Source: Diplonema japonicum
Taxonomy: Eukaryota; Protista; Euglenozoa: Diplonemea
Reading direction: 5' to 3'
Length of the DNA stretch: 64,000 bases
NCBI GenBank assembly: GCA_964019335.1
Contig: OZ025709.1
Span: forward strand, 372,001-436,000
A program made the position numbers and the translations under genes. Below, piece after piece: positions 10,636 to 53,077 of the stretch. The notes below the pieces were generated by a model. The model saw only the letters and a program-made list of their open reading frames with translations. It ran no database searches and was not told the origin of the DNA. Positions within the stretch are counted from its first letter, which is position 1. Every line of letters starts with the position of its first letter.

Positions 10636-10727
10636 TTTTTCTTTTTTTTTCTTCCTTCTCTTCTTCAATCCTCGACCCCCAACCTGAAATTTTATTTGAG
10701 GAAACTCTGCCCCCCCCCCCCCCCCCC

Positions 10728-12055
10728 CAGGGCTATACAAGCATTTTTTTTGAAAATAAGGAAACGGAAACGTTTCCTTACTTTAAAGCCGTTTCCTTAA
10801 GAAGGAACACGCTTCCTCTGAAAAAGGAAACGCGTTTCCTTAACCCTTATCCGCCCAACGACTCATTTTGGGTTTGTTCCCTGTATCCATCCAAACCAAA
10901 GTCTTGGACCGGTTTCCATGAAAAAAAGATGGGATGGAAAGATTTAGAAAATCTGCGCTAAATGCGCTATTTGTACCCACCCATCTGAAACTTCATAGCT
11001 TCAACCCAGAACAGGGGGTACCGAGACACTGGGTGACACCCAAAATATGGGTATTTTCCTAATTTTTCTTGATTTTTTCCCTCTGAATTTCTTTTTGAGT
11101 CACTCGCGGACAGTTCCCAGCCAAAGAACAGGGGGAAGAGGAAGAAGCAGCCTCTATCACATCGTCGATGTTGACAGCTTAGAAAGAAGGAGATGAGGAA
11201 CTACCTTGAGGAATGGGGGGTCGATGAATCGATGGTTCAAGAGGGGAGAGAACCAAACCGCCGGCACATGGCAAGATGGCTATGGATTCGTGCCAGACTT
11301 CGTTTTTTCAACGCCACGCAGTACTTTTTTTTCAGCTATTCAACGACGCAGTGATCGATTACTTGATCGAGCAAATCAAAGTACACGAAGCGAAGATTAA
11401 CCAAGTAACCTCAGAACGGAAGGAATGAGTTTTTGAAGTGGATTGAGTTTGTCATACTCATGGGGAACAGGCTCCTCTCCGCATGCGAGAACGAAGGTGA
11501 TCATTTGTATATTGACAACTGGTATAGCGGTGGTAGGTGTTCAGCTCTTCCATGAGTTGAAGGGCGTGGGGATATACTGCTGTGGAACGATTCGCAAAAA
11601 TAGGCGGGATCAATGCACCTCCATGGCCCGAAAACATTTTAAACATTTAGTGGAATGAACGCAGATTTTCAAGATCTTTGTTTTGAGACAGATGTGCAAG
11701 AACAGAGGCAGAATAGCCACAGGACAGGCCTGAAAAGGAAGATTTCTGGGTGCTGGTAAGGCTGAAATCACTGTTGTGGGACCACCTACTCATGACCCCG
11801 CTTCTTATTGATCGAAATCACAAAGTTTTTAGTGGAATGAACGCAGATTTTAAATACTTTCAAATGCGTACCTCGAACCAAAAGATAACTTCAAGACCAG
11901 CATGTCCGGCCCATGCCAACAAGGGACCAAAAGCGGGAAAATCCAAAAATCAATTAACCCCCCCCCCCCCCCCGGGCTGATGAGGGTTAAGTATCTGGAA
12001 AAAAAAAATAAGGAAACGGAAACGGAAACGGAAAACGTTTCCCCCGTTTCTTGCC
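10728..12055. mobile_element. hAT-like MITE with GGAAAC/AAACGG subterminal repeats, split by a piggyBac insertion
   Basis: Starts CAGGGCTAT. AAGGAAACGGAAACGTTT motifs occur on both sides of the piggyBac. Related short copy at ~57166-57261. Confidence 0.45.
10844..11986 (+). mobile_element. Internally deleted piggyBac element
   Basis: TTAA at 10840-43 and 11987-90. 13-bp TIR CCCTTATCCGCCC / CCCTCATCAGCCC. Transposase relic GDHLYIDNWY...LFHELKGVGIYCCGTIRKNR near 11500-11605. Confidence 0.85.
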
Positions 12056-15732: not shown

Positions 15733-18700
15733 TCATAAACAACCCATTTCTTGGTTTGCAACCGCTGCTTGTTTATACCTGGACAACGGGAGGCCAAATG
15801 CCTTGACGAACTCGTGTTGGACCCTCGATTTCAACGAAGGTGTGACCTTGACTTTCGGATAGTGATCCGCATCAATTGGTTGCGGTGCAGAAGGTATCGA
15901 AGAAGGTGTCTTCACCATCATGTTTGAAACCGGGGCGAAAACGGTTTGCGATCGTGCCACGGGTCCGGTAACAGGATGGCGAAGGACCTCGGGGACCCAA
16001 AAAGAAGGAAGCGCTAGTTCTCGCGACGCAGCAGCAGCAGCAGCAGGGTAGTCGACGATACCCCGAAGAGGAAGCGGCATCTCCATCTCCACAGCCGCCT
16101 CACTGTTTGCAACAGAATAGTCAACAGAGAGTGACTCACCCGTTACAGTTTTCACTGTTTGCCGCAACACCTCAGTGAAACCGTCTAGCGCCGACTGAAG
16201 CATCCAAAACTCAACCGCCCTGCTCAGTTCCGTGTTGATCACAGCGCGCAACACTTCACAGTTCAACAGTACAGCCGTTTGTTGGAGCGACACTACAACG
16301 GTTCGCATCTCCTTCCGTATTCCTTCATTCAACCCTACAACAGGCTGCTTCAGAGTTCCCAACAACCGAGGGACGTATCCGTGAAATGACTTTCCTTGAG
16401 GCATATTCGAACCGGGGAAGATGTTCCTCAACCGTTTCATCGAGTCTGTGACTGTCTGTACATCGTGCTTCATCGGAGGAGCAGGGACCGCCACAGGCGT
16501 TCTGTCCACAGAAGGAATCACCGGTGAGGATGATTGCAATGGAACCAACTGCCCCTGAGACGGACATCTAGGTATAACGTTCAACCATTTTGGTAAATAA
16601 ACGTCAGCGGACACATCATCAGCACCCATCGTGTTTGAAAATCCACAACAAGCACACACCGTCCGTTCCTTCCACCATTGTGTAGGAGGAGGGAGAGGGA
16701 CCGATGGTAGTGGTAACGGAAGCGATGTGGATGGAGGTGGTGTTGCAGACAACGGTGCAGGGGTTAGGCATGTTATTTCGCTTCCCGGAGGCGTGGTCTC
16801 GGGTTGCGTCATGGTTCCGATGTCTTTACGGGTGATGCATGCGGAGTTGGTTCCCTCCCCTTCTTCGTACGATAACGTTCTTTGCCGGACGATTTCGTTT
16901 TTCTTGTTCTCGCTGCCGTCGTTCAAGACAGCCACGGCGCCTGCCGACACAGCTTGCGTCATGGCCTTTTCGACAAGGTGCTGCGTCGCAACCAAACTGT
17001 TATCAGCGGATGGTGTCGGGGCGATCACAGGTTCCTTCTTGATTACGACAAGTAATGGTGTCATGATTGTGTGTTCGGTTTCCGTCAACAGTGTTGGTGG
17101 GGTGATGGTGTCCCTCATCGTGGTTATCGTGGTTTCCTCAACACTCTCCTCGCTTCTGAAGCTGGCCCCTCCCAATGATAGCACGCTTGGCGACCTGTCA
17201 GCAAATGAAGTCGATTGTTGCCTTGACACCACCGACGATGTCCGGTAAAATGTCCCTTCTACCTCTCCCAAAAGGTTTTGCCGTTGTTGTTGCTGTTGCC
17301 GCTGCTGCCTGGAATGGTATACTGTCCGTTTCTTCTTGGCAGTGGGCAGAACGGAGCTTTTCTTCATTAGAACTTCGTTCTCCGCCTTGATTTTTTCCAT
17401 GTCCTGGATCTGTTCGGATAGCTTCTCGATCTTTACCTGTTCCTCCTTGAACTCCTCGGCGGCCTTGGTGTCACCTGTTGAGATTTTGCTTACAATCGAG
17501 TAGACGGTTTTGGGAAGCCTTCCTTGAAGGTGCCCCCATCTCGATCTCCATTCTTTCCGTTCGAGCTCCCACCGGGCCTTGTCGATGTTGTGAGATTTTA
17601 TCACTTCACGGGCTTTGTGTCTGTCTTTGACAACTCGCGCTCGGAGTCTTTTGTCGATCCGTTCCAAGGAAACCACCAATGACATGACGTCGGTCAGTTC
17701 AGGTTCCTCGCTCTCATGGTCGGGTCTGGGGGGCTCGCCGTCTTCAGTGTCGTAGTTTTTTAGTATAATGCCGTACTTGTCCACGAGGATGCGAACTTTT
17801 CTGGTGAGGAGGTTCACGTCCGCCTTCAGCTCTCTGATTTTGACGGCTGGAGGAGGTTCTGCTGTTGCTTCCTTATCGTCGCCGGTGTCCTCCCCCGGGA
17901 GCTCGAGGCCGTTCTTTTCAATGTGGTTGCGAAAGTTTCCGAGGAGGTGCTCCAGGCTGTCGATTTTGATCTGCGATGCGATGCACTCCGCCCGCCACGC
18001 AGCCGTTTCAACTTTGACAGTTGTCAGTTGAGTTTGCATTGAATTCACTTCTGCGATATATGCTGGGTCGCTCTCTCCCAACAGTGGAGGGTTGTCGTTA
18101 AACTCGTGGGGCATGACACGGAGCTTCCTGGGTCCGGAGGGTGATGAACTGAGTGTTGAATAGTGGGTACGATCTTCCACAGCGCTGACGGCTTTTAGGG
18201 TGGCGATTTGAGAGCGGAATTTCATTGTGGAATCCTCCAGACTGCGCTCGAGATTTTTGAGCTTTTCAGCTTTTTTCAGGTTCTCATCGCGAAGGTCTTC
18301 TACCACCTCATCTTGGGTTTGGATGCTGGCGGTGAGTTCCTCGTTCGTTTGTGTAAGGTTCGCGACGGTTTCCGTTAAGCTTTTCACGTCGAGGCTGCTT
18401 TGCAACTTCTCCCCGTTCAGTCGGAGAAATTCGTTTGTAAACCTTGTGGACAGGTCTTGCATGTCATTCTCAAGAGACGTGCACCTTTCCTTGAATTCTT
18501 CAAGTGTTTCCATTGCAGCGTTCAGCTGGTTTTGAACCTCGATTTTCTGTGCTTCTTCGCTCTTCCATCTGTGAAGAAGTTCTTGCAACTGATGTTTTGG
18601 GTCGTCCGTGGGCTGGCTGGTGTCACCGCCGTTTCCCCCGTTCGGCTCCATAATGTTTAGAAAATCGAAGAGAGAGAAGACGCCAACGTCAACATTCTCA

Positions 18701-19137
18701 GAACAGTTAGTTTTAGCGGTCAGGTTTTCGCGTAGAATGCAGACTTCTTGATATAAGGTTTTTCTGATGTAGTTTATGATCTCGGCTCTGCGTTGTAAAG
18801 TGCCTTCTGCAATTCTTCTTCTGGATTCTTGTCTTTCGATTTCCAGTTTTCGTTCGTAAAGTCGTTGCTTCAAGACCGAGATCTGCTGTTGCAAGCGGTG
18901 CACCTCGTTGCCTCCCGTCAGCATCTCGGCCAGTTCGTCTCCATCGTCGAAGGGCACCCCTGCTACCAGATCGCTTAAAACCCGTCCTATTCTTACAATG
19001 CCCCTTTGCACGATGCTCAGCGAGCCGCTGCCCTCGTTCATGCGAATTTCCTCTTCCACGCACTCGCAGTGTGCCTGTACACGTTCCGCGGCTTCGATGA
19101 CAAATTCCCGTAAACTTTCGTAAGGGGGCAGTTCCAT
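15733..19137 (-). CDS. Large coiled-coil hypothetical protein (1134 aa), Pro/Thr-rich C-half
   Basis: Long uninterrupted ORF. ATG at 19137 follows an A-rich run. Heptad-rich N-half. Confidence 0.85.
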   Translation of the reverse strand: MELPPYESLREFVIEAAERVQAHCECVEEEIRMNEGSGSLSIVQRGIVRIGRVLSDLVAGVPFDDGDELAEMLTGGNEVHRLQQQISVLKQRLYERKLEIERQESRRRIAEGTLQRRAEIINYIRKTLYQEVCILRENLTAKTNCSENVDVGVFSLFDFLNIMEPNGGNGGDTSQPTDDPKHQLQELLHRWKSEEAQKIEVQNQLNAAMETLEEFKERCTSLENDMQDLSTRFTNEFLRLNGEKLQSSLDVKSLTETVANLTQTNEELTASIQTQDEVVEDLRDENLKKAEKLKNLERSLEDSTMKFRSQIATLKAVSAVEDRTHYSTLSSSPSGPRKLRVMPHEFNDNPPLLGESDPAYIAEVNSMQTQLTTVKVETAAWRAECIASQIKIDSLEHLLGNFRNHIEKNGLELPGEDTGDDKEATAEPPPAVKIRELKADVNLLTRKVRILVDKYGIILKNYDTEDGEPPRPDHESEEPELTDVMSLVVSLERIDKRLRARVVKDRHKAREVIKSHNIDKARWELERKEWRSRWGHLQGRLPKTVYSIVSKISTGDTKAAEEFKEEQVKIEKLSEQIQDMEKIKAENEVLMKKSSVLPTAKKKRTVYHSRQQRQQQQQRQNLLGEVEGTFYRTSSVVSRQQSTSFADRSPSVLSLGGASFRSEESVEETTITTMRDTITPPTLLTETEHTIMTPLLVVIKKEPVIAPTPSADNSLVATQHLVEKAMTQAVSAGAVAVLNDGSENKKNEIVRQRTLSYEEGEGTNSACITRKDIGTMTQPETTPPGSEITCLTPAPLSATPPPSTSLPLPLPSVPLPPPTQWWKERTVCACCGFSNTMGADDVSADVYLPKWLNVIPRCPSQGQLVPLQSSSPVIPSVDRTPVAVPAPPMKHDVQTVTDSMKRLRNIFPGSNMPQGKSFHGYVPRLLGTLKQPVVGLNEGIRKEMRTVVVSLQQTAVLLNCEVLRAVINTELSRAVEFWMLQSALDGFTEVLRQTVKTVTGESLSVDYSVANSEAAVEMEMPLPLRGIVDYPAAAAAASRELALPSFWVPEVLRHPVTGPVARSQTVFAPVSNMMVKTPSSIPSAPQPIDADHYPKVKVTPSLKSRVQHEFVKAFGLPLSRYKQAAVANQEMGCL

Positions 19138-20071: not shown

Positions 20072-23000
20072 TTACATAGAATCCCTCAAAGGCCGCGAGC
20101 ACTGCATCGAGACTGAAGAAGCAGCTTCGTCTTGTAAAATGTCAATAAGATGATCTTTGTGAGCCAGCTCGGCTTGGAGTATATTAATCTTTTCCCGCAG
20201 ATCGTGCACCTCATCCTTAGGGGGTGAGGGGTGGGCTGCAGCCATATCAGAAACATGCGTTCTCCTCCTCACCCACCTCCGCCGTCGAACAAAATCGTAC
20301 GACCGTTGCCGAGGGTGGAAAACACCTGACCACGAAGACGCATATTGAAAACCCTGTCCTTCTGAGGGCCACGCGAAAATATCTACTTGCCAGTCGTCGA
20401 TCCAAACCCAATTTTTTGAAGGGATAAATCTGTACCGCTCTTGAACAAGCCTTCCAGATTTGTCACTCCAGCAAGGAGGGTCGCCTGGAAGTAGAGTGTC
20501 CGTCCAACCAAGAAGAGGGTAGTACCGTTGATTTTCATAACATTCATCCTCCCAAACCGTTTGCCCGTCGATTTCCTTTAACGGGAGATAGCCGCAGCAT
20601 TTCTCGATTCCCTTTTCCACTCCGTTTTCTTCGAGGATTTTTCTGCCGAGTTCAACCGCGTTCTCCCTGACGTCTTGCAGGTTCGCCTCACAAATAGCAT
20701 CCATCAGCGTTCTTGGAGAGAGGTCGCCTTTCCTCACACACCTCCCTAACCGGTTTTGTTCTATGACTTTCCCCCAGAAAAGCTGGTCGCCGAAGAACGG
20801 GATTATTACCATTGGTCTTCCTGATGTTAGGACGGCCGCGACTGTACCTGCGCCGCCGTGATGGACCACAACGCAGCACTTCGGGAACAACCATGAATGG
20901 TCGACGGTGTCCTTCCACACCATCAGCTTGTCCTCCGTGCCCTTCTTTTCGGGGATTGTGAAGGACGCCTCGCATGTTTGTACCAACACCCTCGCCTGTG
21001 TGTGCTCCATCATCTGTTCCACTGTTTTGACAATCGCCTTTGTGCACGCATCGGAGTCGGACAGCACTATCGAACCGAACCCGATGTACAGCGGCGGCTC
21101 GCCTTTTGCGAGAAATTCTTCAAGTTTTTTGGGTGGTTCGTAAGCCTGGATTTTTTTTTTTTTTTTTTGAAAGAAGAAAAAAAGCGCACCTTGTTTCGTT
21201 CCAAAAACCAGTACCCCGCCATGCTGATGTGGCTCCCCCAGTCCGTGGGGCGCTGCAGCAGGAACTCCGAGAAACAGTACAGATGCGGTGTCTTCACTCT
21301 GGACGCGAGGCCTTGCGCGTGGTTCATCTCGCGCACCTTGAGCGTCCCGACACGGAACTCGTTGACTTTCGCACTGTTTTTTTTTTTCTTTTTTTTTTCC
21401 TTCTTCTTTTAAGCGACATACCCAAGCCCAAGCCATATCATCTTCTCGACAAGGTAATACGACTCTTGGTTGCCGAATGCATCGGTGGCGGCGAAGGGAT
21501 GTGGGTACATGGCAGTAGACGTCCATGGCATCGTGAAGTGCACTTGAAGATGCGTTTGCAGCCTCTCTGCGATGTGCACGTGGCACTGCACAGGGGGGTT
21601 CGCTATGATGACGTCCGGCCGGAAGTCATGAGGAGTGGTGCACGCCTGCCAGCACGTGTTGAAAATATCGAACATCATCTCCTTGTTCGCCTTGATGCGC
21701 TCCGTTTCCAGCGTAACCAAATCAGGGTTGTCGATCATGAAGGACATTAATTCGTCTGGCTCGCCTGCAATGGGGTAATATTCCACCCTCCCTACACCGG
21801 GCTCGACGGTCAGCCGTTGCTTCACCTCGGATTCGATGAAACCTTTGAATTTCGTATGTGTGGACAGTCTTACGGTGTGTCCTTTCTTAGCCAACCCGAG
21901 CGCGAGGGCTAGAAAGGGTTGCACGTCGCCTCGTGTTCCAACTACTAGCATTACGATAGATAGTGGGGGAACGGATGTGAACTTTTTGCTGCGTTCGTCT
22001 GACATTACCGTTTTGGCGAACACCTCCTCGAGGGACTGCTGGTTCAGGCAGTAGTCCTCGATGAATAGTTGTTGTTTGTTTTGCTCGATCTTCTGGAGGA
22101 TCCTGTGGCTTCGCGTGCCCCTCGGGAGTTGGAACGAGACCGCACCGTGCCGCGACGATGTGACCTTGTACCCCGGGACGATCTCCTCGATAAACCTAGT
22201 CACCGCCTGCGCCTTCACCTCATTCGGTGTTCGGACATCGAGCGCCCATCCTTTACCAAACCGTGCTGTGAGTTCCTGCAGTCTTCCCAAGCATCTCAGC
22301 TTTCCTTTCACTAAGATGCCCAGCCGGGTTGACAGAAGATGTACCTCATCGATGGAGTGCGAGGTCATCACTACAGTAGGACGTTTGCTAGCATGGTTTT
22401 GAACAGCTGTGGATGCAGAAGCCCCGCCTCCAAGTGCGGTCGACTGCCCGTCGCTCCGAACCTCCTTCATCCAGTTCAACATGAACTGCTGTGCACGCTT
22501 CTTCCCGATGAGATCCATGCCCGACGTCGGCTCGTCTAAAACCAATATATGCGGTCTGCCTATGAACGCCAGCAGAAGCGACAGCCTTCTTGTCACCGAA
22601 ATAGGAAGATCAGCAACATGAGAATACCGATATTTGTGAAGATCGAAAGCTGTCAACAATGCGATAGATAACGGGCACACAAGCTCAGCAGGAATCCCAC
22701 GAAGGGTCGCGAAGAATGTGATGTGCTCAGACACCGTTAGCTCCGGGATGAGCGCGTTCTTCTGCATGCAAACACCCATGTTGGACTGCCTAGTGATTAC
22801 ATCGTCCGTTAGAATGGATCTTCCATCTACAAAGGCATCGCCTTGCGATGGTGTGATCGCGCCTACTAGAAGATTCACGGTGGTTGTCTTCCCGGCTCCG
22901 CTCGGTCCGAGCAGCGCAAACACCTCACCAGGAGGGATTCGAAGGTCGAGGCATTTCAACGCCGTCACGCGCTCCTTGGTGTGCATGTAACATTTTCGAA

Positions 23001-26000
23001 GTTGGTGCATGAGAATCCCGTCCTTAGGGACATACCCGCAGGACCGCATTTTTTCAACGCTTTTTGTTTCCTTCTCGAGCTCCTCTCGGAGGTCCGGGAG
23101 GATGTCCTCGTTTGTCTCGTCTTGGTAGAACCCCGCGGGGCGTGGGAACCGTTTCTTCACGAACTTCAGAAACGAAACACGTTTCTCAAAAAGCGCGAGG
23201 AGGACGAGCCCGCAGGAAGCCGCGATGACGAACCCGTAAATAGGATACCTAACAAGGTAGAAAGGATTGTTTGAATGGTCGTCCGTTTCGACGTAATTAG
23301 CAAGAATGAGGTACGCGTTGATCAGAGAGTAGAGAGGGCTGAAGACGTAAACAGCAAGGTTGGAGAAATTCTTGATGAAGGTACCGCCCGAGGAAGTTAC
23401 CGAGACAGAGAAAATAAGCGGGATGCACATCGCTAGCAAGAACACGGTTGCGATCCCTGCCTGTGCCCTCCAAGGCGTTGTGTAGTAGTGCGCTGCAAGA
23501 TACGTCAATATCAACGACGCCTGCAGGTAAAGAAACGTCACAACCCCCAACGCAGTAGCCTCCGCAAAGTACCGGAACATCGGGTCCAGCGTGATAAAGA
23601 TCCCCATCACGACTATTGTGATCCCGAGCGACACAACTGAGTCCCATAAATAATGCCCAGCCCAGTACACCCATGTCGGGAGGCCTGTGATTTGCTGAAG
23701 AAGCCTTACACCGCTGATGCTCTCCGTCACTATGGGTGCTGCAAACCCCGATGATATAAACGACATCCCAACTGAGACCAAGACACCGAAAGTCAAGACG
23801 GGCATCGCATTGTCGATGATCTGCTTCTCGGGCATTGCGTGTATGCTGGTGCTGACACGGGGGACCCCGTTGTTAAACAGGCTCCTCAGGTCCTTGGTGA
23901 TGGACGGTGTTTCAGGTGTCTCTGTCCAGTTGGCATAGTCGAGGCGGGAAAGCATCAAATTCAGGTACAGGTTCCACATCGCGGGCAACACATGAGCGCT
24001 GCTCGCGTTGTACCACACAATGATGTCCCCTGTTGAGCTGTTCCTCTGCACCGAAGCTCCGGTCACTCCGTACTCTGTAGACGTGGCGCTTACGACGTCT
24101 ATCAAGCTGGCTTCGTCAGGGATCTTGTTGAAGGATGTCCAGGTGTTGTACCCTTGGAATGGTTCCGAGCTGACGAAGAACTCCCCTTGGATGGGGATCG
24201 TGATGAACTGGTGACCTCCATCGTCTACATCGTAAGGTGCGATGTATTCGGGTGCCAGCGTCAATGCGGGGTTCACCTTGCGGTCTGTCGAGAACTGCAG
24301 CGCCAGCAGCCCCGTCACCACGAACCACAGCGGCACGACAAGATGGAAGAACAGCATCCGTGTATTATTCTTCGTCATGTTGTACCTCTTAAGCGTCACC
24401 AAGATGCACAGCTGCGAAAGCAGCGACGCGCCCTGTGACGAAGCCGATGTGAAGATAACCTCTGGAAGAACCTTGTTGGGGCCCAACGGTGGGCTTACAG
24501 GCACCCAGTCGCCCAACGACTGGTCCAGTGGGCTGACTATATTTGGTACATCAGGTGCTGGGGGCGGTAGTCGCAGCGACTCAGACAGTGCCACTGATGT
24601 CTGAAAGACTTCCTCGGTTATCTGCACAACTTCAGGCGATGATTCTGCATGCGATACTGCTTTCTCTGCTTGCGTATCCGGCTGTGTTTCGGCCACTTCA
24701 GATGGGGCGGGTTCTGACCTCGCGTGCGTTCCTGTGGTCGATTCTTCGCTGATGTCTTCCTCTGCTGTGAAAAGGTTGCCATCCGACGGTTCTACTTTGT
24801 CCGCTTCCCCTAATATCTCGCTCATCACAAGCGTTTCCTGCTGCAGAAGAGCGTCGTCGGCAAGGTCCAACTCCTCCTCTTTGGAGTCCGGTTCGTCTTC
24901 AAACAGTTCTTCTTCTTCTTCTTCTTCCTCAGTTCGTTCCTCGGTCTTCAGAATGTCACCGTCAATTTCGGGCTGCAGCTCACCGAGTTCGATGGGAAGG
25001 GGCAGGTGCAGCTCGGGTACCACGGGTGCAGGTTCGGGCGGGGCATCGCCTTCGTCGGGAGCTGTGGGGACGTGAACGCCATCCCACTCTGGTGGTGGGG
25101 TGGGGGTAGGGTCCAGCAGCAGCGGTCGCGTCGCCTTTGGCTTGCGGCGTGACCCCTCGAGCTCTGTGTCGTACGGCGTGATGACAATGGGGCTGAACGA
25201 CCTGTTTGGGGTGCGCGGGCTTGCATCGGGTTCGAAGCAAACGTCAGCATTGTCGATGAACTCTTGCAAATTGGTGTCTTGCCAGAAAGAGTTCAGCTTT
25301 GCAGGCTGCCCCTCTACCCTGGGCGTCACGCACTCCCCAAACGGCGATGCTTGTGGCGCCATAGTAAGAGGCGACATCGTCATGGGCACAGGGGTTTGAA
25401 GCCTGTTTGTCTGATCATTGGTATGTCGCGACGCGCATGCCCTGCACATGGTAGTTTTACATATATCACAGTACAAGGCTTCAGATCCACGTGTTGCGTT
25501 GCCATCGCATTTTTCGTTAGGCCCACTACCCGCACAGGGGGTCTTGGATTCGATCGCGCGAAACACATGTCCTGAGGGGCACGCTATGATCTCCTCACCC
25601 TCTTCGAGGAGGCTCAGGAAAATATCCTCCAGGCTGTTCGTTTTCAACGACCATGTTTTAACCCGCCCATGGAGGGAGGAACCCTTGGTCTCCAGACCTC
25701 GCAGTAAATATGTCAACTCGTCGACGTTTTGCAGCGGGACGTGCACTTTGATCTCCACTTTCGACTCACGCAGGAAGGAGGATGGTGCGAGCCTGCTGAC
25801 AGAGTGCACCAGCTGTTCCTGCTCTGGCTCGGGGCTGTCTGAACCTGACTCCGAGTACCCGTCACGATGGGTTTTCAGCCTTGTGGATTTGCCAATGGTA
25901 ACTAAGTAGCCGCAACCAAACGTTTTCTTCAAAAAACCGGAAGACCCCACACATCGCGGACGGCCCTTCTGCATGATTGTGATACGGTCAGCAACAAACT

Positions 26001-28380
26001 CCGCTTCCTCCATAGAGGATGTAACTAATACCACGATCCTATTCTTCTTCAGCCTTCGGATAAGATCTCTGAGCTTCTGTATCGACACAGGGTCCATGTC
26101 CGTTGTGGGTTCATCCAAGAAGACAAGCCGCGAGTCACCTAAGAAAGCCATGGCAACCTGTAGCTTCTTCTTCTGCCCCGGAGTGAGGTTCCCGATTCGT
26201 TGGTTTCGCTGTGTTAAGAGCTCGACCTCGGCCGCCATGCTCTCTGCTTGCGCTTTAACCTGCAGCCTCGGTATTCCTTTTATTATGCTAGCCAGCACTA
26301 AATGTTCGTACACCGTCAGACATTCGTAGAGGTAGTCCTTTTCAGGAGCGAGTCCCATCTTCATCCTGTACTGAAACAACGCAGGCTGGATTACTCTCCC
26401 TGCCAAGTACACTTGGCCTGCATCGGGAATCATCTGGCCAGTCAGGCATCGGATTAACGATGATTTTCCTTCGGATCCGAGAATGGCAAAAACCTGTCCC
26501 GGGTACAAGTCCAGACTCACCTCGTCAAGGACACGCTTCCTGTCGTTGCAGATGTTTAACCCAATTCCGAACTTTCTTGCAATGGGCACGGATGCGGTCA
26601 GGCCTCTGACAGAAAGCACGTTTTTCGAAGGGTCTTTGGGTCCCGCTTCGTATGCTGGTTGAGAGGGTATCGCAGGCGGCCGCTCAGTAAGGGGTGAGCT
26701 GCACCAATACGTACGTTGGAACGGGAAGTACCATTTGTACCCGTTCTGCGTAACCCTGCTGATGTACCATGTGAGGAGGAGGTACAGAAATGCATCGCCC
26801 ACCATCATCCCCAACGTCGTGGAAATACTGAAGTCATCGTCCTTGTCGATGGTTCCCAACCCGACCGCTGCCTTGCCTGTGGAAAGATTCGACCATGTCA
26901 CCTTGCCCCCTTCATCGTTGATACGTATTACGATTTCGGAGAATCCAAGGATGAGGGCCACAGGGGAGAGAAGAGACCCACCGAGCTTGCGATTTGACAC
27001 AATGCAACCCTCGGCTTGGCCGTAATGTGTTTCATTGCACTCGGCGAGAGATATACCCGTGATGATGGTTATGCTGTAGATGACAACGCAAAAGACGGGT
27101 GTGTAGGAAGGGTTTGTGAAGAAAACAGCGACGAGCTGCGCGGCGGCAACAACACTGAAGACGAAGCAAAAGATGTACACGAACATCACGGCAACATCGA
27201 CATTAATGAGCGCTTTCGACTGCACGAGGATAAGCACCTGGAAGATGATCGGGATGGTACTAACGAAACAGGCTGCTCCCACCGTCGCGGCACCCTGCGC
27301 AACGGGGGAAAGCCCCAATACATGGAGACACGGTGTACTGCCAGCTTCTCTCGCACGCACGGACGATGTTGCAGCTACCGAAAACGTCATCAGCCAAGAC
27401 AGAGCAACCACAGGCCCACCACCCCGTCGAAATATCTGGTCCCTTGCAACCATCCACCGTAAAGATTCGGAGTTCTCTGCCAAGGAGAGGTTGCCGATTC
27501 GCATTTGGATGTCCTGCGAAGGCGGTGGATATCGTCGAACGTACGTGTTTTGCATCTCATACATAGTGGCATTGATGGATTCAGACCCGATAGCAAGGCT
27601 GAAGATAGCTCGGTCCAATGCTGCCTGCAACGCGAGAAGCTTCTTCGTATATTTTCTGGTAGGTGCTGCTACGTATGGTTTCACAGATGAAAAGGTGAGG
27701 TCGCCGCTGGGAAGGTCGCTTTGATGGATGACATAGTGCAGACCGTCATAGGTTGGCATAGTTGCGTTCCACCCCGAGAGCGTCATCCTCCTCCCAAGGG
27801 TCACACATGACTTGTGCAGTGACAGTGCTCTTGAAAAGGTAATCGCGGCGAATGGGAGGATCGTGTTGTTGGTGGCGCTGCACAGGATTTTCTCCATATC
27901 TTCCGACTCGTCGAACCACCTCTGCTTTCCCTGATAGTTCTCCGCCGCCAGCATTCTTGACACCACCTCTGTCAGCGTTTTTCTTGCCGTCTTCCATGTT
28001 GCGTCACTGTCGTCTGCTCGTGTGTCGATCGCAAACCACAGTTCACCCTGCTGCATTCCTGTTGCATAGCTCTCTTTAAGTATACCGTCAGACGGGAGGC
28101 ATCCAGTCGGAGGTGGTGAATGTTGGCTGTACAGATTTCCATCTGAATCCGGTCCGCCCATTACATAGAAGAGCAAGCAGAATATACCGACAACCATCAC
28201 AGGGAACAACGCTTCTGCTACCGCATATACCGGGTACCTCTTGCGGACTTTCAAGTTTGTGATGAAGAGGTGCAAGGTTTGTCTCAGGACAGTGAGAGGG
28301 GGAACCCCTGTGAGGAGGCTGACATCACGCTGCTTTGCAAAATAGTCGGATTTTGACTGGCATGACGGACGTGATGCCAT
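20072..28380 (-). CDS. ABCA-type full transporter fused to a sterol 3-beta-glucosyltransferase-like (GT1) domain and a DysF domain (~2738 aa); 2 introns
   Basis: TMD-NBD-TMD-NBD (FLDEPT, GPSGAGKTT, VLDEPTSGMD, QQSLEEVF), then in the same exon VGTRGDVQPF...FTMPW. GT-AG introns 21374-21421 and 21146-21189 restore the frame to YIGFGS, HHGGAGT, PFFGDQ, then YENQRY...W...RRRRWVRRR. Exons sum to 8217 nt. Confidence 0.9.
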
Positions 28381-28475
28381 AACATGGTGTGTGTGGCCTG
28401 TAGGTGTAGAATTGTAAGAAGATAGAAAAAAAAAAAAAAAAAAAAAAACTGTTTTTTTTTTTTTTTTTTTTTCTT

Positions 28476-28916: not shown

Positions 28917-29948
28917 TTATTCCTCTTTGACCTTGACCTCAACGACCCCGTCCTCCTTCATTCTGTAAGCAGTGGGTGGTTTGGGGAGGGCGACTTTTTC
29001 CCATCTGAATGGTTTGCTCCAGAAGGTTTCGTGCACCCGAGTGTCGTCGCCAGACCCGGGGGGCGCGGCAAGAAGACGGTCGCGAAGGAGCTGCACCGCT
29101 TTGTCCTGCTCGGGCTTGTAGCTGGCCGAGTAGTACCGTACGTCCTCCAGTGCTACGTGTCGTTCTTTGTTGTCTTCTGTGAACTTCCTCTGAATGTAGT
29201 CTAGGTCGCTGGGCAGCCGGGGGAGATAACACAGAACAGCGACGACAAACGCACTTTTCACAAAAACAGCAAGCCCATGCAGAAACAAACCGTACGTTCT
29301 GTTGAGCCATGGCACTACCGATACCCGTGTCCCTTCCACTTCCCAACCGTGTTCCTGCGTCAGATTTTCAAGCAGAATTTGCATTCCCTTCGGTTGGGTC
29401 AAGACCGCGACTGTATCTTCGGTGTGTGCACCGTTCTTCAAAGCTTTTGTAAAGCGATCCATCCCGCTTGGTTTCCCCAACAACATGGAGACGTACTCCT
29501 CCCGTGAGTGTATGTATGCAAATGCTGGGCATAATTTTGGGTTAGGTATGTGGATGACCCTCGGGAAGTCCACTGTCGATGTGACTTCAAGTGAAGATTT
29601 GGGGCTCCAACTCCGTGTTGCTTGGAGCCCTGTGTCATGTTTCACCCCTATGAAGGGCACGCCGATGAATACGGTTGAGTAGTTCTTGTTGTTCGTGAGC
29701 TCTGACAGTGTTCTCTTTATGTACCATTGGCTGACATTCATCAGGAACAGTGGGTACACCTCCACCCGAGCTGCCGTCTGCTTGTTCGTGAACACCAGCT
29801 TTCTCGACGTCAGGAACTTCGTCTCCTCCCGTTTCTTCCCGTCCTCCATCTCTATGATCTCGGTGCCCTGCAGATCTTCTTTCGAAACCCCTGCTGTTTT
29901 TTTCGGCACCGCCGTGGCACACCCCCTTATTGATATTCTTTTCAGCAT
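28917..29948 (-). CDS. Hypothetical protein (343 aa), probable mitochondrial presequence, one hydrophobic segment near the C-terminus
   Basis: Starts MLKRISIRGCAT after an A-rich run. Clean ORF. Confidence 0.75.
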   Translation of the reverse strand: MLKRISIRGCATAVPKKTAGVSKEDLQGTEIIEMEDGKKREETKFLTSRKLVFTNKQTAARVEVYPLFLMNVSQWYIKRTLSELTNNKNYSTVFIGVPFIGVKHDTGLQATRSWSPKSSLEVTSTVDFPRVIHIPNPKLCPAFAYIHSREEYVSMLLGKPSGMDRFTKALKNGAHTEDTVAVLTQPKGMQILLENLTQEHGWEVEGTRVSVVPWLNRTYGLFLHGLAVFVKSAFVVAVLCYLPRLPSDLDYIQRKFTEDNKERHVALEDVRYYSASYKPEQDKAVQLLRDRLLAAPPGSGDDTRVHETFWSKPFRWEKVALPKPPTAYRMKEDGVVEVKVKEE

Positions 29949-30062
29949 TTTCTTTTTTGTCCCCCTTCCCTCCTTTTTCTTTTTTTTGAAAATACTTTTT
30001 TTTTTTGTTCCCGGAGGGAGAGTGGGGGGGGGGGGGAATTTTTTCCAACTTTTCCTTATGTA

Positions 30063-30123: not shown

Positions 30124-30993
30124 TCACAAGTGATTGTGTTTGTTCCTGAAGCACTCCAGTACTTTGATCCTTCCGGTGTACTCGTCATGCTGCTTGCGCT
30201 TCGAGATGCTCCGTGCGAGTGAGAGTTGTTCTTGCGACTCTAGCTGCCTGCTGCAGGAGTCTTGGATCCAGGCCTCCGCAGCTTGCTTCCGTCTGAGTCG
30301 TGCTGCGTAAGAAGAGACAGCACGCTGCTTCTCGTCAGCCTGCCATGACGTGTCGAGGCCTCGAGGGGAGGTGAACTCTGTTCCTAAAGACGGCGGGTTA
30401 AAGCTGGTTACAGGGTATTTTGTATTGGTAAGCCTCCCTGGTGGGGGCGGCTTTCGTAACAAATGTGGTGCCTGGCAAGAGGGGAGATTTGCGGCAACGA
30501 AGGCATCTGGGACAGTGACGGAGCGGGTGAGCATAGGATCTCTCTCCCTCTCCGCAGTGCTGCATAGAGTTGTTTTTGAGTTGACAGCGGTTTTGTTCGG
30601 CCTTGGTAGTTCCGGGAGCTCCTCTGGGCCGTCGTGCCGGGTCTTGTTGAGTTCTCTTATTTTCTCGATTTCATTGAAGTACTTTAGTGTTGTGCTGGCA
30701 GATTTCATTCTTGTCTCTTCTCTTGCGCCGTCGGCGGCTGTTCTCCCTTGTGCGGCTAGCGGAGCGCCTCGTAGCTTGCCGCCTTCTCTTTTCCAGTTTG
30801 TTTTTCCTGTCACTACTCTTTTTCGGAGCCGGGCCCCTTGCATTCTTCCGTGTCCAGGAAGCCCTCTCACCTCACTCCTTGTCATTCCGTTGGGGTACCT
30901 CCATGGCTGTGCTTCTACTGCGGTTGCCCAGTCTATGTATTTGTCAACCCGGTTTTTCGAGGTGCTGCTGTTGCAGCTTTCAATACGCCGCAT
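30124..30993 (-). CDS. Hypothetical basic protein (289 aa)
   Basis: ATG at 30993, clean ORF, same strand as neighbours. Confidence 0.7.
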   Translation of the reverse strand: MRRIESCNSSTSKNRVDKYIDWATAVEAQPWRYPNGMTRSEVRGLPGHGRMQGARLRKRVVTGKTNWKREGGKLRGAPLAAQGRTAADGAREETRMKSASTTLKYFNEIEKIRELNKTRHDGPEELPELPRPNKTAVNSKTTLCSTAERERDPMLTRSVTVPDAFVAANLPSCQAPHLLRKPPPPGRLTNTKYPVTSFNPPSLGTEFTSPRGLDTSWQADEKQRAVSSYAARLRRKQAAEAWIQDSCSRQLESQEQLSLARSISKRKQHDEYTGRIKVLECFRNKHNHL

Positions 30994-32125
30994 TTCCCCC
31001 CCCCCTAGACACACCCAACCTGCGGGATTTGATGGATTTTTTTTTTTTTTTTTTGTAAATAAAAAAAAGTTTAATATAAAACGAAGCTGAAGACACCAAG
31101 AAAAAAAAGGGGGGGGTTTTTTTTTAAAAAAAGATTTTTTTTTTCCCTTGTAACAAGTAATCTTCGTAGTGGGGAGATCGGGGAGGGAAAAGAAGAAAAA
31201 AAAAGTTTTTTGTTTATCGAGTACCCCTTAAGAAACAACCCAGGAGTTTCCCCCCCCCCCCACCCCCGAAAAAAGAGATCAGGGTCAACACTTTCCCCCC
31301 CCTTTTTATTTTTCTCATTCTCCCATTTGGTACCTGAAGAAGATTGTCATTCCTTTTTTTTTTTTGGTTTTGCTTTATTTTCTTTATCTTTCTTCACCAC
31401 TGTATTAATTTTTTTTATTTGTGTTCCCAATAAAAAAAAAGAAGAATTGAAAAAAAAGGGGGAAGCTGGGTGAGGAGGACGGTTAGGAACGGATTGGAAG
31501 TTAAAAGTATTTTTAAGAAAAAAGGGGGGGGTGTTATGCTGGGGGGAAGGGAAAAAATGGGGGGGATGTAAAAAAAGAAAGAAACACTTTGTTGTTACAC
31601 TTGGTTTTTTTTTTTTTTTTTTTTCTTTTGTAAGAGAAACATAAAACATTCTGGCGTTGTACAGCCTCCGAACGCGAGCAAAAAAAAAAAAAGAAAAAGA
31701 AAAGGGAAAAAAAAAAAAGAAAAAAAAAAGATGTGTTATAATCTGTATTGGAAACTTTAAAAAAAAAAAATTGCTCTGAGGACGAAGAGCTCTAGCACTA
31801 ACTGTTTGTCAACAAGAATTATTTTTTGTTTTATTTTTCTCTTTCTTTTTTATTTCCCAGACAGTTCTTTTCCTTTCGTAGTTCCTTTAATTTCTTTTTT
31901 TTTTTTAGCCAGGCCTTATCAGATAAAAAAAAAAAGAGGGGGAAAAAAAAACAAGGCAGCATCCTTTAACCAACAACATTATACCCTTTTTTTCTTCGAG
32001 CAAAATTCTTTTTTAGTGTTTTTTTTTTCCCCTCCCCTCATTTTTTTTTTAAATATAAAAAAGGTCATTTCACGGTTTCCCAAATATATTGAAACATTGA
32101 ACATGATATTTGGACAATCCCTTCG

Positions 32126-32908: not shown

Positions 32909-33248
32909 TCAGTACTGAGGTTGAAACGACTGGGCGTTGTTGTAACCCTGGTAGGGCATGGTGGGCTGCTGGGAGATAAGGAGAGGACCCTGCGAAGGAC
33001 CTGTGGGGCCCATGGGCTGTGCGGACTGAACGTGCTTTTCAGCCTGTTTTTTTTTTTTTTTTTTTAAATCTTTTTTGAAGATTTTTTTTCCCCTCCTTAT
33101 ACCTGCTCCTTGGCGTCTCTAAGCTGGTGGGACACATCATCAATCTTGTCAATGTACTCCCTCAACACCTGGATGATGTAAGGCATCGCAAAGTCGTAAA
33201 CATTGTGCCTCCAAGCAAGCTCCAAAGCCACATCAGGCTGGATGTAAC

Positions 33249-33280
<32 letters not shown>

Positions 33281-34431
33281 CCCTTTTCATACTCGTAGCA
33301 TGTGAACAAGCATGCAGAGAAGCACTCCTTGAGGTCATTGTCTGTGAAGAACCTGACCAGGTTCTCGACGACCTTCTTGTCGCCGGACTCTGCGGCGGTG
33401 CTCATGGCGTCCTGGTACAGCTTGTCCCTCTTGGAGAGCTCGATGGCTTGCATGTACTTCCCGTTCTTCTTGTACAGCCACGCCCCGAGCCTCCTCATCT
33501 CAAGGAGATCATGCTGGTCAAGCTCCAGCGCAAGGTCCAGCTGGTCGACCTGATCGTACAGCTCAAGGGACTTCCTGAGGGAGTCGTAGTCCTCCTCCTC
33601 AATGTACAGCCTGTTCAGTGCCGAGTTCACCTTCTTGTGGTTCGCCTCCTGAACGGACTCCAGGTACGGCCTGATGACGATAAGCAGGTGCAACCCTGTC
33701 GCCTTGCTCTTCTGCGTCACCTCTGTGACCACACGCTCCGGGTCCACCCTCTTGATGACTGTGATCAGAAGGTCGTTCACGAGGTCCGGGTGCTCCTCAA
33801 GGTAGAAGCCCACACCGTTGTAGCACAGCTCCAGGGACGAGACTCTGGCGATGGCGTCCTTGAAGATCTCGTGGTCCCACGACAGGACGGAGTGGTCCAT
33901 CATGACGGAGCAGGCTCTGTCCCACTCCTCGTTCTTGCAGTGCACGTACCTGATCTCGGCCCAGTGGTGGTACTGCTCGCACACGGTCACAAGCTTGTGG
34001 GCGTTGAGCCTGTTCTTCCACAGCTTGATGTGCTCCATGAGCTTGTCGTGCTTGTACTTCGCGTACAAGATGCCAAGCTCGGTGAACATCCCGACGTGTG
34101 CCCTCTCGCTGGACAGGCCCTGCTTCAGGAGCCCGATCAGCTCCTCGACCCTCCCGCGTGACTCGAAGAAGAAGATCAACCCGTCAAGCTCGTCGGCTAC
34201 CACAATCACGTGCTGCGCGGCAATAGCAGCAAGCCTGAACTCCTCAGCATCAACACACGCGTAGCACACCTGTGCATTGTGTACATTACTCTTAGCAGCA
34301 TACCTCCTTCCACGTGTCGACAGAGTTGGTCCTTCCTGCAGCGTCAATCGCCAGCTGGAACTGGCCGAGCTTCATGTGCGTCTTGGCCAAGAACGGGAAG
34401 TTCGACACCTAGTAGTAGTGTGTTGTGACGT

Positions 34432-34467
<36 letters not shown>

Positions 34468-37400
34468 ACACCGTGGAGAAGCACAGCTTAGCGGCGTCGT
34501 ACAGCTGCTCCTGGTAGCACCTCTGCCCGACATCGCCCACCTTGGCCAGGTTGGAGTTCTTCAAGAAGTCCTCCAGGTCTGTGAGCCTGTTGGTGATGCA
34601 GTAAGCGTAGCACAGCTCGGTGTCGATGTTCTCGTCTGTTTTTTTTTTTTTTTTTTTTTTTTTCTCTTTCTTTTTCTTTTTTTTTTGTACCTTTCTGCTT
34701 GCTGCCCGATCTCGCCATCACCAGGTACTTGACAAGGTCCGCGTACTTCTCCTTGTCGTTCGATGCCACCACTGCGTTGATGACGGCCTGCGCCTGCGTC
34801 GCGTCGTCAGCCTTGATGAACGAGGAGATCGCAAGGCTCACATCGTCCTTCTGGAGCTCCGCCTTACCCACCTGCGCCCACACCTCGGGGAGGGACACCT
34901 TCTCAGCGAAGTCCCTGGCACGCTCCAGGTTCTGGAGGTCCTGAAGAAGCACCTCAATAGCCTCTGCGTTCATGTTCTCCTTCTTGTAGATGATGAAGGC
35001 CTCCTCGAAGAGACCCGCCTTGCTGGCGATTTCGGCGATAGTCTTGGTGTCGAAGTTGTCGAGCCTCTGGATGTAGTCCATGACCTTGGGGGACGAGGAG
35101 TTGATGGCAGTCAGGATCAGCAGGTTCTGGAGGTATCTGTTGTTCCTGAACTCGGACTTCTCGTCGCCTTGCAGCACGATCTTCTCGAGAAGCGTGGTGA
35201 GGTACTCGGGGAGGTTGGCCTGCATGAAGGCCTTCACGGTCACAGAGACCTCCTCGGCCTTCTTGGCCTCGGGGAGCGCGGTCGCTACGACAGCATCGAT
35301 AAGGCTTTTTCGGTATGGCTCCTGCTCTTCCGTCTCAAGGACGAAGGCCCAGAGCTCGGGGTCCTGGCGGACCACAAGGTAGCGTGCCTGTAGTATTGGT
35401 TAATAAGGACCCACCAGTTTAGTTTAGTTACCTGCTGCTTGAACATTCCGTTGCGGCCGGTCACCTCGATGAGCTCCTTGTCGCACTGGCCTTGCTCGTA
35501 AGCAAGGACGGCCAGGTTGGGGTCGCGGTTCTCACAGTACTTACCCACAATGGTGGGGTCGTACTTCCCAACGTTCTCCGTCAGGAACTGCTTGGCGTTC
35601 TGGTTGGTATCCACGTAGATCTTCGCCAGAGCGTTGTACAGCCCTTGGTCCTGTGTGGTGTTGTTGACTCTTTAATAAAAAAAATATATACCTGGCTGGT
35701 CTGAAGACGGCTCTCCAGCCAGTCCTGCAGCATGCGCAGCCTGTTGCGCTTCTCGACCTCTTCCACGAGCTCCTCGATAGGTGCCATGGATCCAACGGAC
35801 ACAACAAGCTTCTTGATGTAGTCCTCCTGGCACCCGACATCAAGGAGGGACCCCACCACAAGGGGGGTCTTCATGGGGGCTTTCTTCTGGATGTACATGT
35901 CGATGTACGCAAGGTTCTTGGTGTCGTACAGGAAGCGGACCATCTCGTCCATGAAGTTGTGCTTGTCACAGACGTTGATGAAGGGCCACAGGTCCTGCAG
36001 GCGCTTCTCTTTCAGGAAGTTCTTGGTCTTCTCTGCGGGGTAGAAGTCGGACTCTCTGGTCATCCTCTCCACCTCAGCCATCTGACCGACGTTGGCAGCA
36101 GCCTCGATGTACCTGTAGTGAACCTCGGGGTCACTGCAGCCCTCCTGGCTCTGGGCTTTAGGTCTAATGATGGACCACAGGAAGTAGTACAGCGACTCGT
36201 AGTGCTTGAAGCTCAGGAACATGTCCATAAGAGACTCCGCACCGAGGACTTCGTAGTTCTTGATGGCAACCTGCACGCACAGCTTGTAGTTCTGCGCGAC
36301 ATTGTTGGACATCAGCTCGTTGAGGCAAGCAAGGGCGTCCTCCTTCGAGAGGTGCTGGAAGAAGTCGCACAACCACTCCTGGGTGATCACGTGGGTGTTG
36401 ATGATCACCCTCTTCAGGTCCGCGAGGGTGCTCTCCGCGTAGTCCTGGTCACGCTGGTGCTTGTTGTAGTTCTCAAGCGCACGCTGGAACAGCTGGGCAC
36501 GTTCGCACAGCTGCGCCACCTTGAGGGCGTCGTAGTACGAAAGCTTGAACTGCTCGAGGATCTTGTCCGCCACCTGCGGTGGGGAGTACATGAGGTTGAT
36601 CTCGAGCAGTCTGGTCTGCAAGGCACCGTGCTCAGGCTGGTTCTCCTTCAGTACCTCCAGAAGGTAAGCAGTCGCGGGTCTGATGGCGTTCTTGGTGACG
36701 AACATTTCCAGCACCCTGTTGTGGTCCAGAGTGGCGGCGGTGGAGGGCTCCTGGTTCAGCGCCTGTGCGAGCTCCGAGGCGCCCTCAGGGTTGCCCATGG
36801 CGAAGACCTTCTCGAGAAGCTCGATGGAGTCCAAGTTGAGCTCCTTCTCACGCTTCACGTAGTCGAGGATGTTCTTCCAGTCCTTCTGCTGCAGGAGGAC
36901 GTTGATGATCTTCCAATGCGCCTTGCTCTTGAAGTAGATTTGAAGGGCGAGCTGGTGGTCTGCGGGTGCCACAATGTCACCGAGTTCCTCACTTTCCTCA
37001 AGCTTCTTGTCCTCGAGGTACCTCTTCACGAAGTCAATGCCCTGCTGCTTGGTGAGCATCACCTTGGCAAGCTCCACACTTTCATGGGCGTTCAGCTTCG
37101 AGTGCTCCATGATGTACTTGAAGTAGAGGGTCTGGGGTGGCTGGCCACCTGGTGCAACGGGCATGGACTGGAACCTCTGAAGAACCTGGGGGGTCCTCAG
37201 CATCTGCCTGGGTGCCTCGCAGCACAGCTTCACAGCAGGCTCGATCTGGTTGGACTGGATGAGCATGTTGAACCTGCTGACGAACAGCTCGTCGGCTCCG
37301 CCGAGGTCAGCGGACGTGGCGATGCGCACTGCCAGTGCCTGGTTGCCCAGCTTCTGAGCCACCCACTGCACAATGGTGGACTCGTTGATGTGCGCCATCC

Positions 37401-38400: not shown

Positions 38401-38597
38401 GGCTGCGATTTTTAAAAAAAGTTTTTTTTTAAAAGTTTTTTTGTGTTCTATATTATTTTTTTTTGTGTCTGGTAGGTTGATTTTTTTAAAAACAAAAAAA
38501 CAAAGGAAGAAGAAAGAAGAAAAAAAAGGGGGGGGGGCTTTTTCATTCTCCCTGCCCCCATTCCCAGTTGTTTGTTTCTATTAACATTTTACTTTAA

Positions 38598-52814: not shown

Positions 52815-53009
52815 CTTTTTCTTTTTTTTCCCCCCTCCCCCCCTCCTCCTTCCTGGTGATGACTTTTTTTTTTTTAAAAAAAGAAGGGGGAAATAGTCTA
52901 GGGGGTAATAGAATTTAAAAAAAAGTTTTTTCTTAAAAAATTTTAAAAAAAAAGAAGGGGGGGAAAAATACTTAACTAAATGAAACAAAAAAGAATAACC
53001 GTGTAAATG

Positions 53010-53044
<35 letters not shown>

Positions 53045-53077
53045 AAGAAAGAAATCCTTCTCCTTTCCTCATCTACC

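Follow-up and report, generated by a model that had tools for sequence, protein, structure and literature searches.

A diplonemid gene family that joins an ABCA-type transporter to a glycosyltransferase and a DysF domain in one reading frame

The DNA analysed here is a 64-kb stretch of the genome of Diplonema japonicum (contig OZ025709.1 of GenBank assembly GCA_964019335.1, positions 372,001 to 436,000; hereafter the window, in whose own numbering all positions are given). On its minus strand, at 20072-28380, lies a gene of three exons for a protein of 2738 amino acid residues (aa), in which the open reading frame (ORF), Pfam and alignments place an ABCA transporter, a glycosyltransferase (GT), a DysF domain and a coiled coil one behind the other. 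The fusion is confirmed, and the protein belongs to an apparently undescribed, conserved diplonemid family made of known parts. New here are the two paralogues with mirror-image ATP sites, the polar residue in the pocket of the enzyme, a GT-DysF unit that appears to be older than the fusion, and the zinc finger of the paralogue group to which the window protein belongs (group A). We give a probability of roughly 0.55 to the reading that this single membrane protein would make a glycolipid and flip it across its own bilayer.

Gene structure and the junction of the fused parts

Translation of the three exons gives a spliced frame with 0 internal stops. Exon 1 (21422-28380, 6959 nt) encodes the whole ABCA part and most of the GT N-lobe, exon 2 (21190-21373) encodes the end of this lobe and the inter-lobe linker as judged by translation and alignment, and exon 3 runs from 21145 to 20072. 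The two small introns that the initial annotation had linked to the GT C-lobe are found in this frame: intron 1 (21374-21421) is A-rich and 48 nt long, and intron 2 (21146-21189) is 44 nt long. The GT-AG ends and the colinear arrangement of orthologues taken from transcripts are the basis on which their splice sites are predicted. The proposal that the transporter passes in frame and within one exon into the N-lobe, yielding one polypeptide, is borne out by translation, Pfam and bridging contigs. SLEEVF (codon at 22035), the end of the transporter part, and IVMLVVGTRGDVQPF (21957) lie in one exon and one frame, and between them is a linker of 17 residues (21958-22008), similar in length in seven aligned homologues. 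One contig from each of the sequencing runs X3, X6 and X7 (library type not on record) spans the junction with 0 differences, which provides the support from reads that had been called for. These runs come from two studies, one possibly the source of the window itself, and the comparison covered 20200-28400 in 4 of the 7 listed runs, outside the repeat stretches at both introns. Run X1 represents a relative that is ~96% alike; 30 of its 36 differences from the window are at third codon positions, and 29 codons are changed silently and 6 in meaning. The match of a low-depth X1 contig ends at 21189, the very position at which a transcript with intron 2 removed would part from the genome; this hints weakly at splicing of the intron. 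Another X1 contig (record 4, at 21491-21542) is <90% alike and encodes a related GT at its loose end, representing a paralogue in the organism of X1.

A T-tract (28448-28426) and an AG (28399-28398), 17 nt upstream of the ATG, together occupy 28397-28448 on the minus strand and are likely the spliced-leader trans-splice acceptor of the gene. Spliced-leader addition occurs in diplonemids (PMC10161547; this and the other papers are cited from the part of their text that was available). A or T runs 11-23 nt in length lie ahead of this upstream acceptor and of the acceptors of the two introns. Among the 435 AG sites of exon 1, none has an A/T run longer than 6 nt and none near the junction has one longer than 4 nt; an acceptor-like tract for internal trans-splicing, the risk raised in the initial annotation, is not present near the junction.

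Distribution of the fusion

The orthologue survey places the fusion in diplonemids alone among the matches listed, the best 120-150 matches of each search being in view. With the junction region as query, 15 proteins were obtained, of which 7 carry the fusion. A profile from the second nucleotide-binding domain (NBD2) to DysF, compared with 1.84 billion representatives, put 8 fused proteins on top (1082-1710 bits), with single-part proteins at 739 bits or less among the 150 matches listed, and a third search added two more fused proteins. Within the 386 sequences collected, an NBD and a GT occur together in 15, which are the window protein, 13 diplonemid-type proteins and one slime-mould model. 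Transcriptome ORFs make up 8 of these 13 database proteins, and seven of them are from named species of both diplonemid families, i.e. Diplonema ambulator (74% identity over the junction region), Flectonema neradi, Lacrimia lanifica, Artemidia motanka, Rhynchopus humris, Diplonema japonicum and Namystynia karyoxenos. The other five are ENA proteins, including one fragment and one model that ends early in the GT C-lobe. Moreover, a 5'-truncated ORF of Hemistasia groups with the fused proteins. The genera with the fusion span Diplonemidae and Hemistasiidae, and no fused form was seen in a named kinetoplastid, euglenid or other group among the matches listed. This agrees with the initial annotation, which knew the architecture from nowhere else and looked to the Euglenozoa for its origin.

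The slime-mould model (Synstelium polycarpum P0140, 1975 aa) was rejected as a further fusion. It has the reverse order, PH-GRAM-GT, a cut-off FYVE domain and half an ABCA, and this single gene model is likely a merge of neighbouring genes; if real, it would be an independent GT-ABCA fusion.

GT-DysF proteins that stand alone, frequently with an added C2 domain, were seen in four euglenid genera (Entosiphon, Rhabdomonas, Ploeotia and Peranema) and in several amoebozoans (Physarum, Luapelamoeba and Soliformovum), and they form one branch with the fused enzymes in a quick GT tree (support by the Shimodaira-Hasegawa-like approximate likelihood ratio test, SH-aLRT, 92). Since the GT-DysF unit stands alone in euglenids and amoebozoans, the new event would be the joining of an ABCA to an existing unit, and by the tree and these taxa the unit appears older than the fusion. 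The stand-alone proteins share with the fusion the GT-DysF order, the polar pocket residue and 38-42% identity, and they are likely the donor family. They differ from it in having 590-1070 aa and no ABC part, often with C2 in place of the coiled coil, and they are annotated by similarity only. The members seen are P0019-P0032, P0051, P0139, P0141, P0142, P0146, P0147 and P0149, two of them with tandem DysF domains, and the subfamily looks uncharacterised. In addition, P0153 of Artemidia motanka (1231 aa) consists of a stand-alone GT, an insert and a diverged DysF-like stretch, and has a long branch beside the fused enzymes. The GT of P0146, from a cluster labelled Paramoeba, falls inside the diplonemid branch, also on a long branch; Paramoeba carries a kinetoplastid endosymbiont, which we take to be a possible source of this sequence.

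Domain organization of the transporter part

In the exon-1 frame Pfam recognizes ABC2_membrane_3 twice, ABC_tran twice, R1_ABCA1 and Glyco_transf_28 (aa 2142-2293, E 6e-17), and in exon 3 EryCIII-like_C, UDPGT and Pex24p. The layout is that of an ABCA protein with two halves, each having a transmembrane domain (TMD), an exoplasmic domain, an NBD and a regulatory (R) domain, and hydropathy gives 11 hydrophobic segments over the threshold, 5 + 6. All parts are on the minus strand. TMD1 with the first exoplasmic domain (aa ~57-545, 26746-28212) was delimited by Pfam, hydropathy and the PDB matches of the orthologue P0001. It is followed by NBD1 (aa 613-829, 25894-26544; alignment and motif counts), in which Walker A has a two-residue deletion (GSE--GKS), the H-switch His is replaced by Ser, the DE of Walker B is kept and the signature reads LTPGQ. 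An R1-like regulatory region of approximate limits (aa ~855-925, 25606-25818), defined by its sequence and conservation in the alignment, ends in SLEDIF. TMD2 with the second exoplasmic domain (aa ~1343-1731, 23188-24354) is supported by Pfam and hydropathy. NBD2 (aa 1790-2035, 22276-23013; alignment and motif counts) has intact Walker A, Q-loop, Walker B and H-switch motifs and a degenerate signature (LPISV), and the R2 domain that ends in SLEEVF (22009-22263) is matched by R1_ABCA1 at aa 2042-2114 (E 5e-7).

Two further parts lie between the halves. After R1 comes a Cys/His-rich zinc finger resembling the C1, KKT2-KKT3 and ZZ types (aa 934-982, 25435-25581), whose pattern is present in 6/6 full-length proteins of group A and 0/7 of the other paralogue group (group B). 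Its Atlas features reach 0.90-0.92 to C1_2 and zf-KKT2_KKT3 clusters with a low recognition score, there is no Pfam match, and the kinship to these fingers is offered as a lead only. Then follows an acidic, Pro-rich linker of ~300 aa (aa ~1000-1300, 24481-25383), which is 3-34% identical to its homologues in the alignment and is likely disordered. The domain list of the initial annotation stands as given, while this finger, the linker and the degenerate ATP site had been overlooked in it.

The best PDB matches of P0001 are ABCA1, ABCA4, ABCA3 and ABCA7 (E 1e-119 to 1e-111), and the family assignments proposed before (ABCA, UGT80/Atg26-type GT and DysF) agree with the closest solved relatives. 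The two TMD-NBD-R halves are common to ABCA1, ABCA3, ABCA4 and ABCA7 (7TDT, 7W01, 7LKP, 8EDW) and the diplonemid fusion. Unlike these full-size ABCAs, the fusion adds a C-terminal enzyme, a DysF domain and a coiled coil, and the window protein also has the C1-like finger, the long acidic linker and the degenerate ATP site. The fusions further have a private motif behind the last transmembrane helix, FPRPAGFY in the window (23125-23148), found by motif scan. The pattern [FI]PRPxx[FY]Y occurs in 13/13 full-length fused proteins and in 0/214 unfused ABCAs; it was derived from the fused set, so only the zero in the unfused ABCAs is informative.

Two paralogues with opposite ATP sites

The fused proteins form two groups: A comprises the window protein, P0001-P0005 and P0017, and B comprises P0006, P0007, P0016, P0136, P0137, P0284 and P0287. 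In ABC transporters, one NBD contributes Walker A, Walker B and the His switch to each ATP site, and the signature comes from its partner NBD. Among the unfused ABCAs with two NBDs, 185/195 have 4 + 4 motifs, and at least 3 are present at each site in all 195. Site 1 of group A keeps only 1-2 of the 4 motifs, with the two-residue deletion in Walker A and a scrambled signature in 6/6 proteins and loss of the His in 5/6. Site 2 of this group retains 3 of 4 in 6/6 proteins, its Walker A, DE and His from NBD2 being intact and its signature invariably [LF]TPGQ. The window protein itself has 1/4 motifs at site 1 and 3/4 at site 2, and so departs from the typical ABCA with two consensus sites. In group B, site 1 has 4/4 motifs and site 2 has 0-2/4, in 7/7 proteins. 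By these counts the paralogues are mirror images, each having lost the ATP site that the other keeps. As the losses hit the motifs of one composite site and spare the other, one working site seems to have been selected in each paralogue. The remaining site 2 of group A is not fully consensus, and hydrolysis of ATP may be absent there. The initial claim of an ABCA lipid transporter holds for the class, by Pfam and PDB matches, but pumping is only putative, as one ATP site is dead and the other has a non-consensus signature. Asymmetric ABC transporters such as ABCC proteins, TAP and CFTR likewise have one consensus-like and one degenerate site; unlike them, the present case concerns the ABCA class and sister paralogues with opposite losses.

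Both groups contain both families, so the duplication would be older than the split of Diplonemidae and Hemistasiidae. In the NBD trees, A and B are set apart together from 32 unfused ABCAs (SH-aLRT 99 with LG+G4 and 96 with a mixture model); with the long stems of A and B and no more than four unfused ABCAs of named euglenozoans in the trees, long-branch attraction may contribute to this grouping. In the GT tree, a quick search with 56 rows, group A has a support of 100 and group B of 92, A and B are not resolved as sisters, and both share a branch (95) with the stand-alone Artemidia GT and the Paramoeba sequence. Together, the NBD trees, the GT tree and the private motif favour one fusion followed by a duplication. 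The TMDs of the two paralogues are 14-17% identical.

The glycosyltransferase

The exon-1 part of the GT-B N-lobe lies at 21422-21957 and the C-lobe (aa 2382-2565), with HHGGAGT and PFFGDQ, at 20594-21145, both on the minus strand and both defined by Pfam and comparison with yeast UGT51, the closest solved relative of both lobes. In UGT51, Asp752 serves as the catalytic base, Met851 matters for activity, and Gln1094, Asp1093 and Ser1072 contact the glucose (PMC8883072). These residues were mapped onto an alignment of 94 GT rows. The position of Asp752 (Asp2152 in the window protein, codon 21927-21925) is D in 13/13 fused-type rows; Asp1093 and Gln1094 (Asp2501 and Gln2502) are kept in 12/13, the exception being a truncated gene model, and the position of Ser1072 is Ala in all 94 rows. 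With its catalytic and glucose-binding residues kept, the enzyme looks active and glucose-using. The pocket, however, departs from that of the annotated sterol glucosyltransferases: the position of Met851 is taken by Gln2265 in the window protein, and Leu occurs there in only 1 of 19 stand-alone GT-DysF-type rows. Its role in the acceptor pocket is our own reading of the reported importance of Met851. Given a polar residue in such a pocket position, the acceptor may be other than a sterol. Of the UGT80/Atg26-type sterol enzyme named in the initial annotation, the GT fold and the catalytic residues are thus retained, but the sterol acceptor is doubtful.

The fusion shares with UGT51/Atg26 (5GL5, 5XVM) and plant UGT80 the GT-B fold, GxRGDVQP with the catalytic Asp, HHGGxGT and PFFGDQ. 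It differs from them in the polar residue at the position of Met851, the DysF domain behind the enzyme, the attached transporter and its place in the separate GT-DysF clade. Pfam finds no PH or GRAM domain before the GT, and in the quick tree the GT is far from Atg26. The GT is the best-conserved part of the fusion, its N-lobe having 44-78% identity to the window protein versus 14-66% for TMD1. A model of the GT-DysF-coil piece of Hemistasia (P0272) is confident, with a mean predicted local distance difference test score (pLDDT) of 85.5 and a predicted template modelling score (pTM) of 0.80, and it matches UGT51 best (E 5e-30, template modelling score 0.83 of the target). The tail from NBD2 through R2 and GT to DysF, modelled with AlphaFold2 on 6 sequences, gave low scores (pLDDT 59, pTM 0.32), and this model was set aside as poor.

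The DysF domain and the C-terminal helix

The Trp-rich DysF motif noted behind the C-lobe corresponds to the Pex24p match in exon 3 (E 4e-8). The domain (aa 2578-2677, 20258-20557, minus strand) was delimited by Pfam and by comparison with the N-terminal DysF of TECPR1, the closest solved relative, which matches over the whole domain (E 1.8e-11). The pattern YENQR ... WxW ... RRRxWxR of the Trp/Arg stack is present, and 7/8 core Trp/Arg positions are identical to those in the TECPR1 residue list of PMC10476172. This stack is shared with TECPR1 N-DysF (8P5P) and Pex30 DysF, and Arg76 is also kept. The tip residues Trp154, Trp77 and Asp143 of TECPR1 are replaced by Ser, Tyr and Ser, and Ile142 by Ser. 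Trp154 is essential for sphingomyelin binding by TECPR1 (PMC10476172), and with these four residues changed a TECPR1-type sphingomyelin specificity is not supported. The solved DysF relatives bind lipids (PMC10476172, PMC12101078), and at the same tip the Pex30 domain uses aromatic and basic residues to bind phosphatidic acid (PMC12101078). From the residues kept, we infer that general membrane binding as in Pex30 is likelier than sphingomyelin sensing. The short coiled coil proposed at the C-terminus agrees with a coiled-coil-like helix (aa ~2692-2720, 20129-20215, minus strand) predicted from the sequence, with a confident helix at 599-637 in the P0272 model and with a weak ATG16 match in Pfam (E 0.076).

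Possible function of the fusion and other explanations

A glycolipid synthesized on the cytosolic face has to get across the membrane, and transporters of steryl glucosides and similar lipids are poorly known. In the ABCA topology, the parts following NBD2 and R2 lie on the cytosolic side, so the GT, DysF and coiled coil would be cytosolic, where UDP-glucose is available. We assume that the aromatic and basic tip of DysF would insert into the cytosolic leaflet and hold the enzyme at the membrane, that the GT could then move glucose from UDP-glucose to a lipid hydroxyl with Asp2152 as base, and that the glycolipid might pass into the adjacent TMDs, which would flip or extrude it towards the outer or luminal side, with ATP turnover at site 2 only as the putative driving force. 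Sterols and lipids of higher polarity are both candidate acceptors, as the sequence is compatible with either kind. As to its history, a single fusion in the ancestor of diplonemids would have joined an older GT-DysF to an ABCA, and the fused gene would then have been duplicated, with different ATP sites lost in the copies. A bolder version is put forward only tentatively: a eukaryotic ABC lipid floppase with its own glycolipid synthase, whose product, not an ordinary steryl glucoside, would be handed into the membrane domain, with an unstudied GT-DysF subfamily and sister machines running on opposite ATP sites.

Several points weigh against synthesis and flipping by one protein. Neither ATP site of group A is fully consensus: at site 2, 3/4 motifs are present and the signature is [LF]TPGQ. 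The position of Met851 is Q or H in 12/13 fused-type rows versus F, Y or M in 61/62 GT-only rows, which weakens the case for a sterol. Stand-alone GT-DysF enzymes exist, so the enzyme has no need of a pump. A conserved fusion is evidence of linkage, not of product hand-over, and the activity, substrate and location of the fusion are predictions from sequence. Furthermore, RNA across the junction was not seen in the listed runs, none of which is recorded as RNA; X1, which is RNA by guess, has no piece that spans the junction.

The strongest of the other explanations, which we regard as rather improbable, is that the ABCA part is not a pump and acts as a nucleotide- or lipid-sensing scaffold that anchors and switches the GT at one membrane. 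SUR-type regulators act in this way for their partners. The lack of a site with all four consensus motifs in group A, the strong divergence of the TMDs between the paralogues (14-17%) and the sensor-like extra parts (C1-like finger, DysF and long linker) would fit such a role, but it does not account well for the fully consensus site in 7/7 proteins of group B, for site 2 of group A, where [LF]TPGQ never varies and Walker A, DE and His of NBD2 are intact in 6/6, or for the retention of both TMDs and both exoplasmic domains. Somewhat less probable still is a conjugate-and-export detoxifier, which would glucosylate and expel lipophilic compounds of food or sea water such as foreign sterols and algal metabolites. 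The relatives of the GT1 fold include natural-product and xenobiotic glycosyltransferases, and the altered acceptor pocket suits a non-sterol acceptor. UGT51, too, is described as promiscuous (PMC8883072). However, the paralogues seen fall into just two old groups and their enzyme is strongly conserved, unlike what a fast-expanding family would show, and the lipid-moving ABCA class and the DysF domain point to membrane lipids.

It is improbable that the parts act apart, whether by a cut of the frame through internal trans-splicing or proteolysis, or as two unlinked activities that are merely co-localised. An in-frame Met (aa 2126) stands just ahead of the GT, an RNA read of the same organism across the junction was not seen in the listed runs, and in polycistronic organisms assembled transcripts can in principle join neighbours; against this, 14 sequences of both families have no stop between the parts and a conserved linker length, and the AG sites near the junction lack the long A/T runs of true acceptors. 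An assembly or gene-model artefact, of the sort that does occur and that Synstelium P0140 looks like, is effectively refuted by the three runs of two studies that bridge the junction with 0 differences (one may be the source of the window) and by orthologous fusions in independent transcriptomes of seven named species.

The enzyme fused to the transporter points to a candidate class of ABCA substrates and puts synthesis and flipping into one testable chain. The mirror-image paralogues amount to a natural experiment that asks if one ATP site, whichever of the two, is enough to run an ABCA. An undescribed lipid of euglenozoans and amoebozoans may be the product of the GT-DysF subfamily, whose pocket residue is polar. 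Specialists of transporters would probably be surprised by both the fused glycolipid-type enzyme and the mirror-image single sites. Diplonemids are abundant marine protists, and experiments are feasible in Paradiplonema papillatum if the gene is present there, as this species can be tagged (PMC12697944). An ABCA-glucosyltransferase fusion was not found described in the literature searched, with subscription journals and domain-architecture databases lying outside the search and automatic annotation possibly existing. It is not mentioned in the main text of the genome paper (PMC10161547) or in the available parts of PMC9512073 and PMC12697944. The proteomics table of P. papillatum (PMC12697944, supplement 1), in its available part, has no entry for a sterol glucosyltransferase and lists one ABCA with a close match in T. 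brucei.

Other genes in the window

The minus strand carries all 15 long frames scanned in the window (1-64000), an arrangement like that of a polycistronic cluster, and the genes neighbouring the fusion are unrelated housekeeping genes. By the frame scan they encode clathrin heavy chain (33097-38577), dynein heavy chain (40511-53072) and two paralogues of phosphatidylinositol-specific phospholipase C (54338-55534 and 57724-58974). Further frames correspond to Nup93/Nic96, Sec23/24 and a DHHC palmitoyltransferase. The flanking frames 15733-19137, 28917-30050 and 30124-31000 have no Pfam match, and one long coiled-coil-like protein is among them. The frames 5451-6422 and 9568-10782 are paralogous, each encoding BspA-type leucine-rich repeats behind a ubiquitin-like domain. 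A retrotransposon-type endonuclease/exonuclease/phosphatase domain lies in a GC-rich stretch at 2148-3278 and is possibly the remnant of a long interspersed nuclear element. Very short GT-AG introns, consisting mostly of A or T runs, occur throughout the genes of the window, and the intergenic regions are rich in homopolymers.

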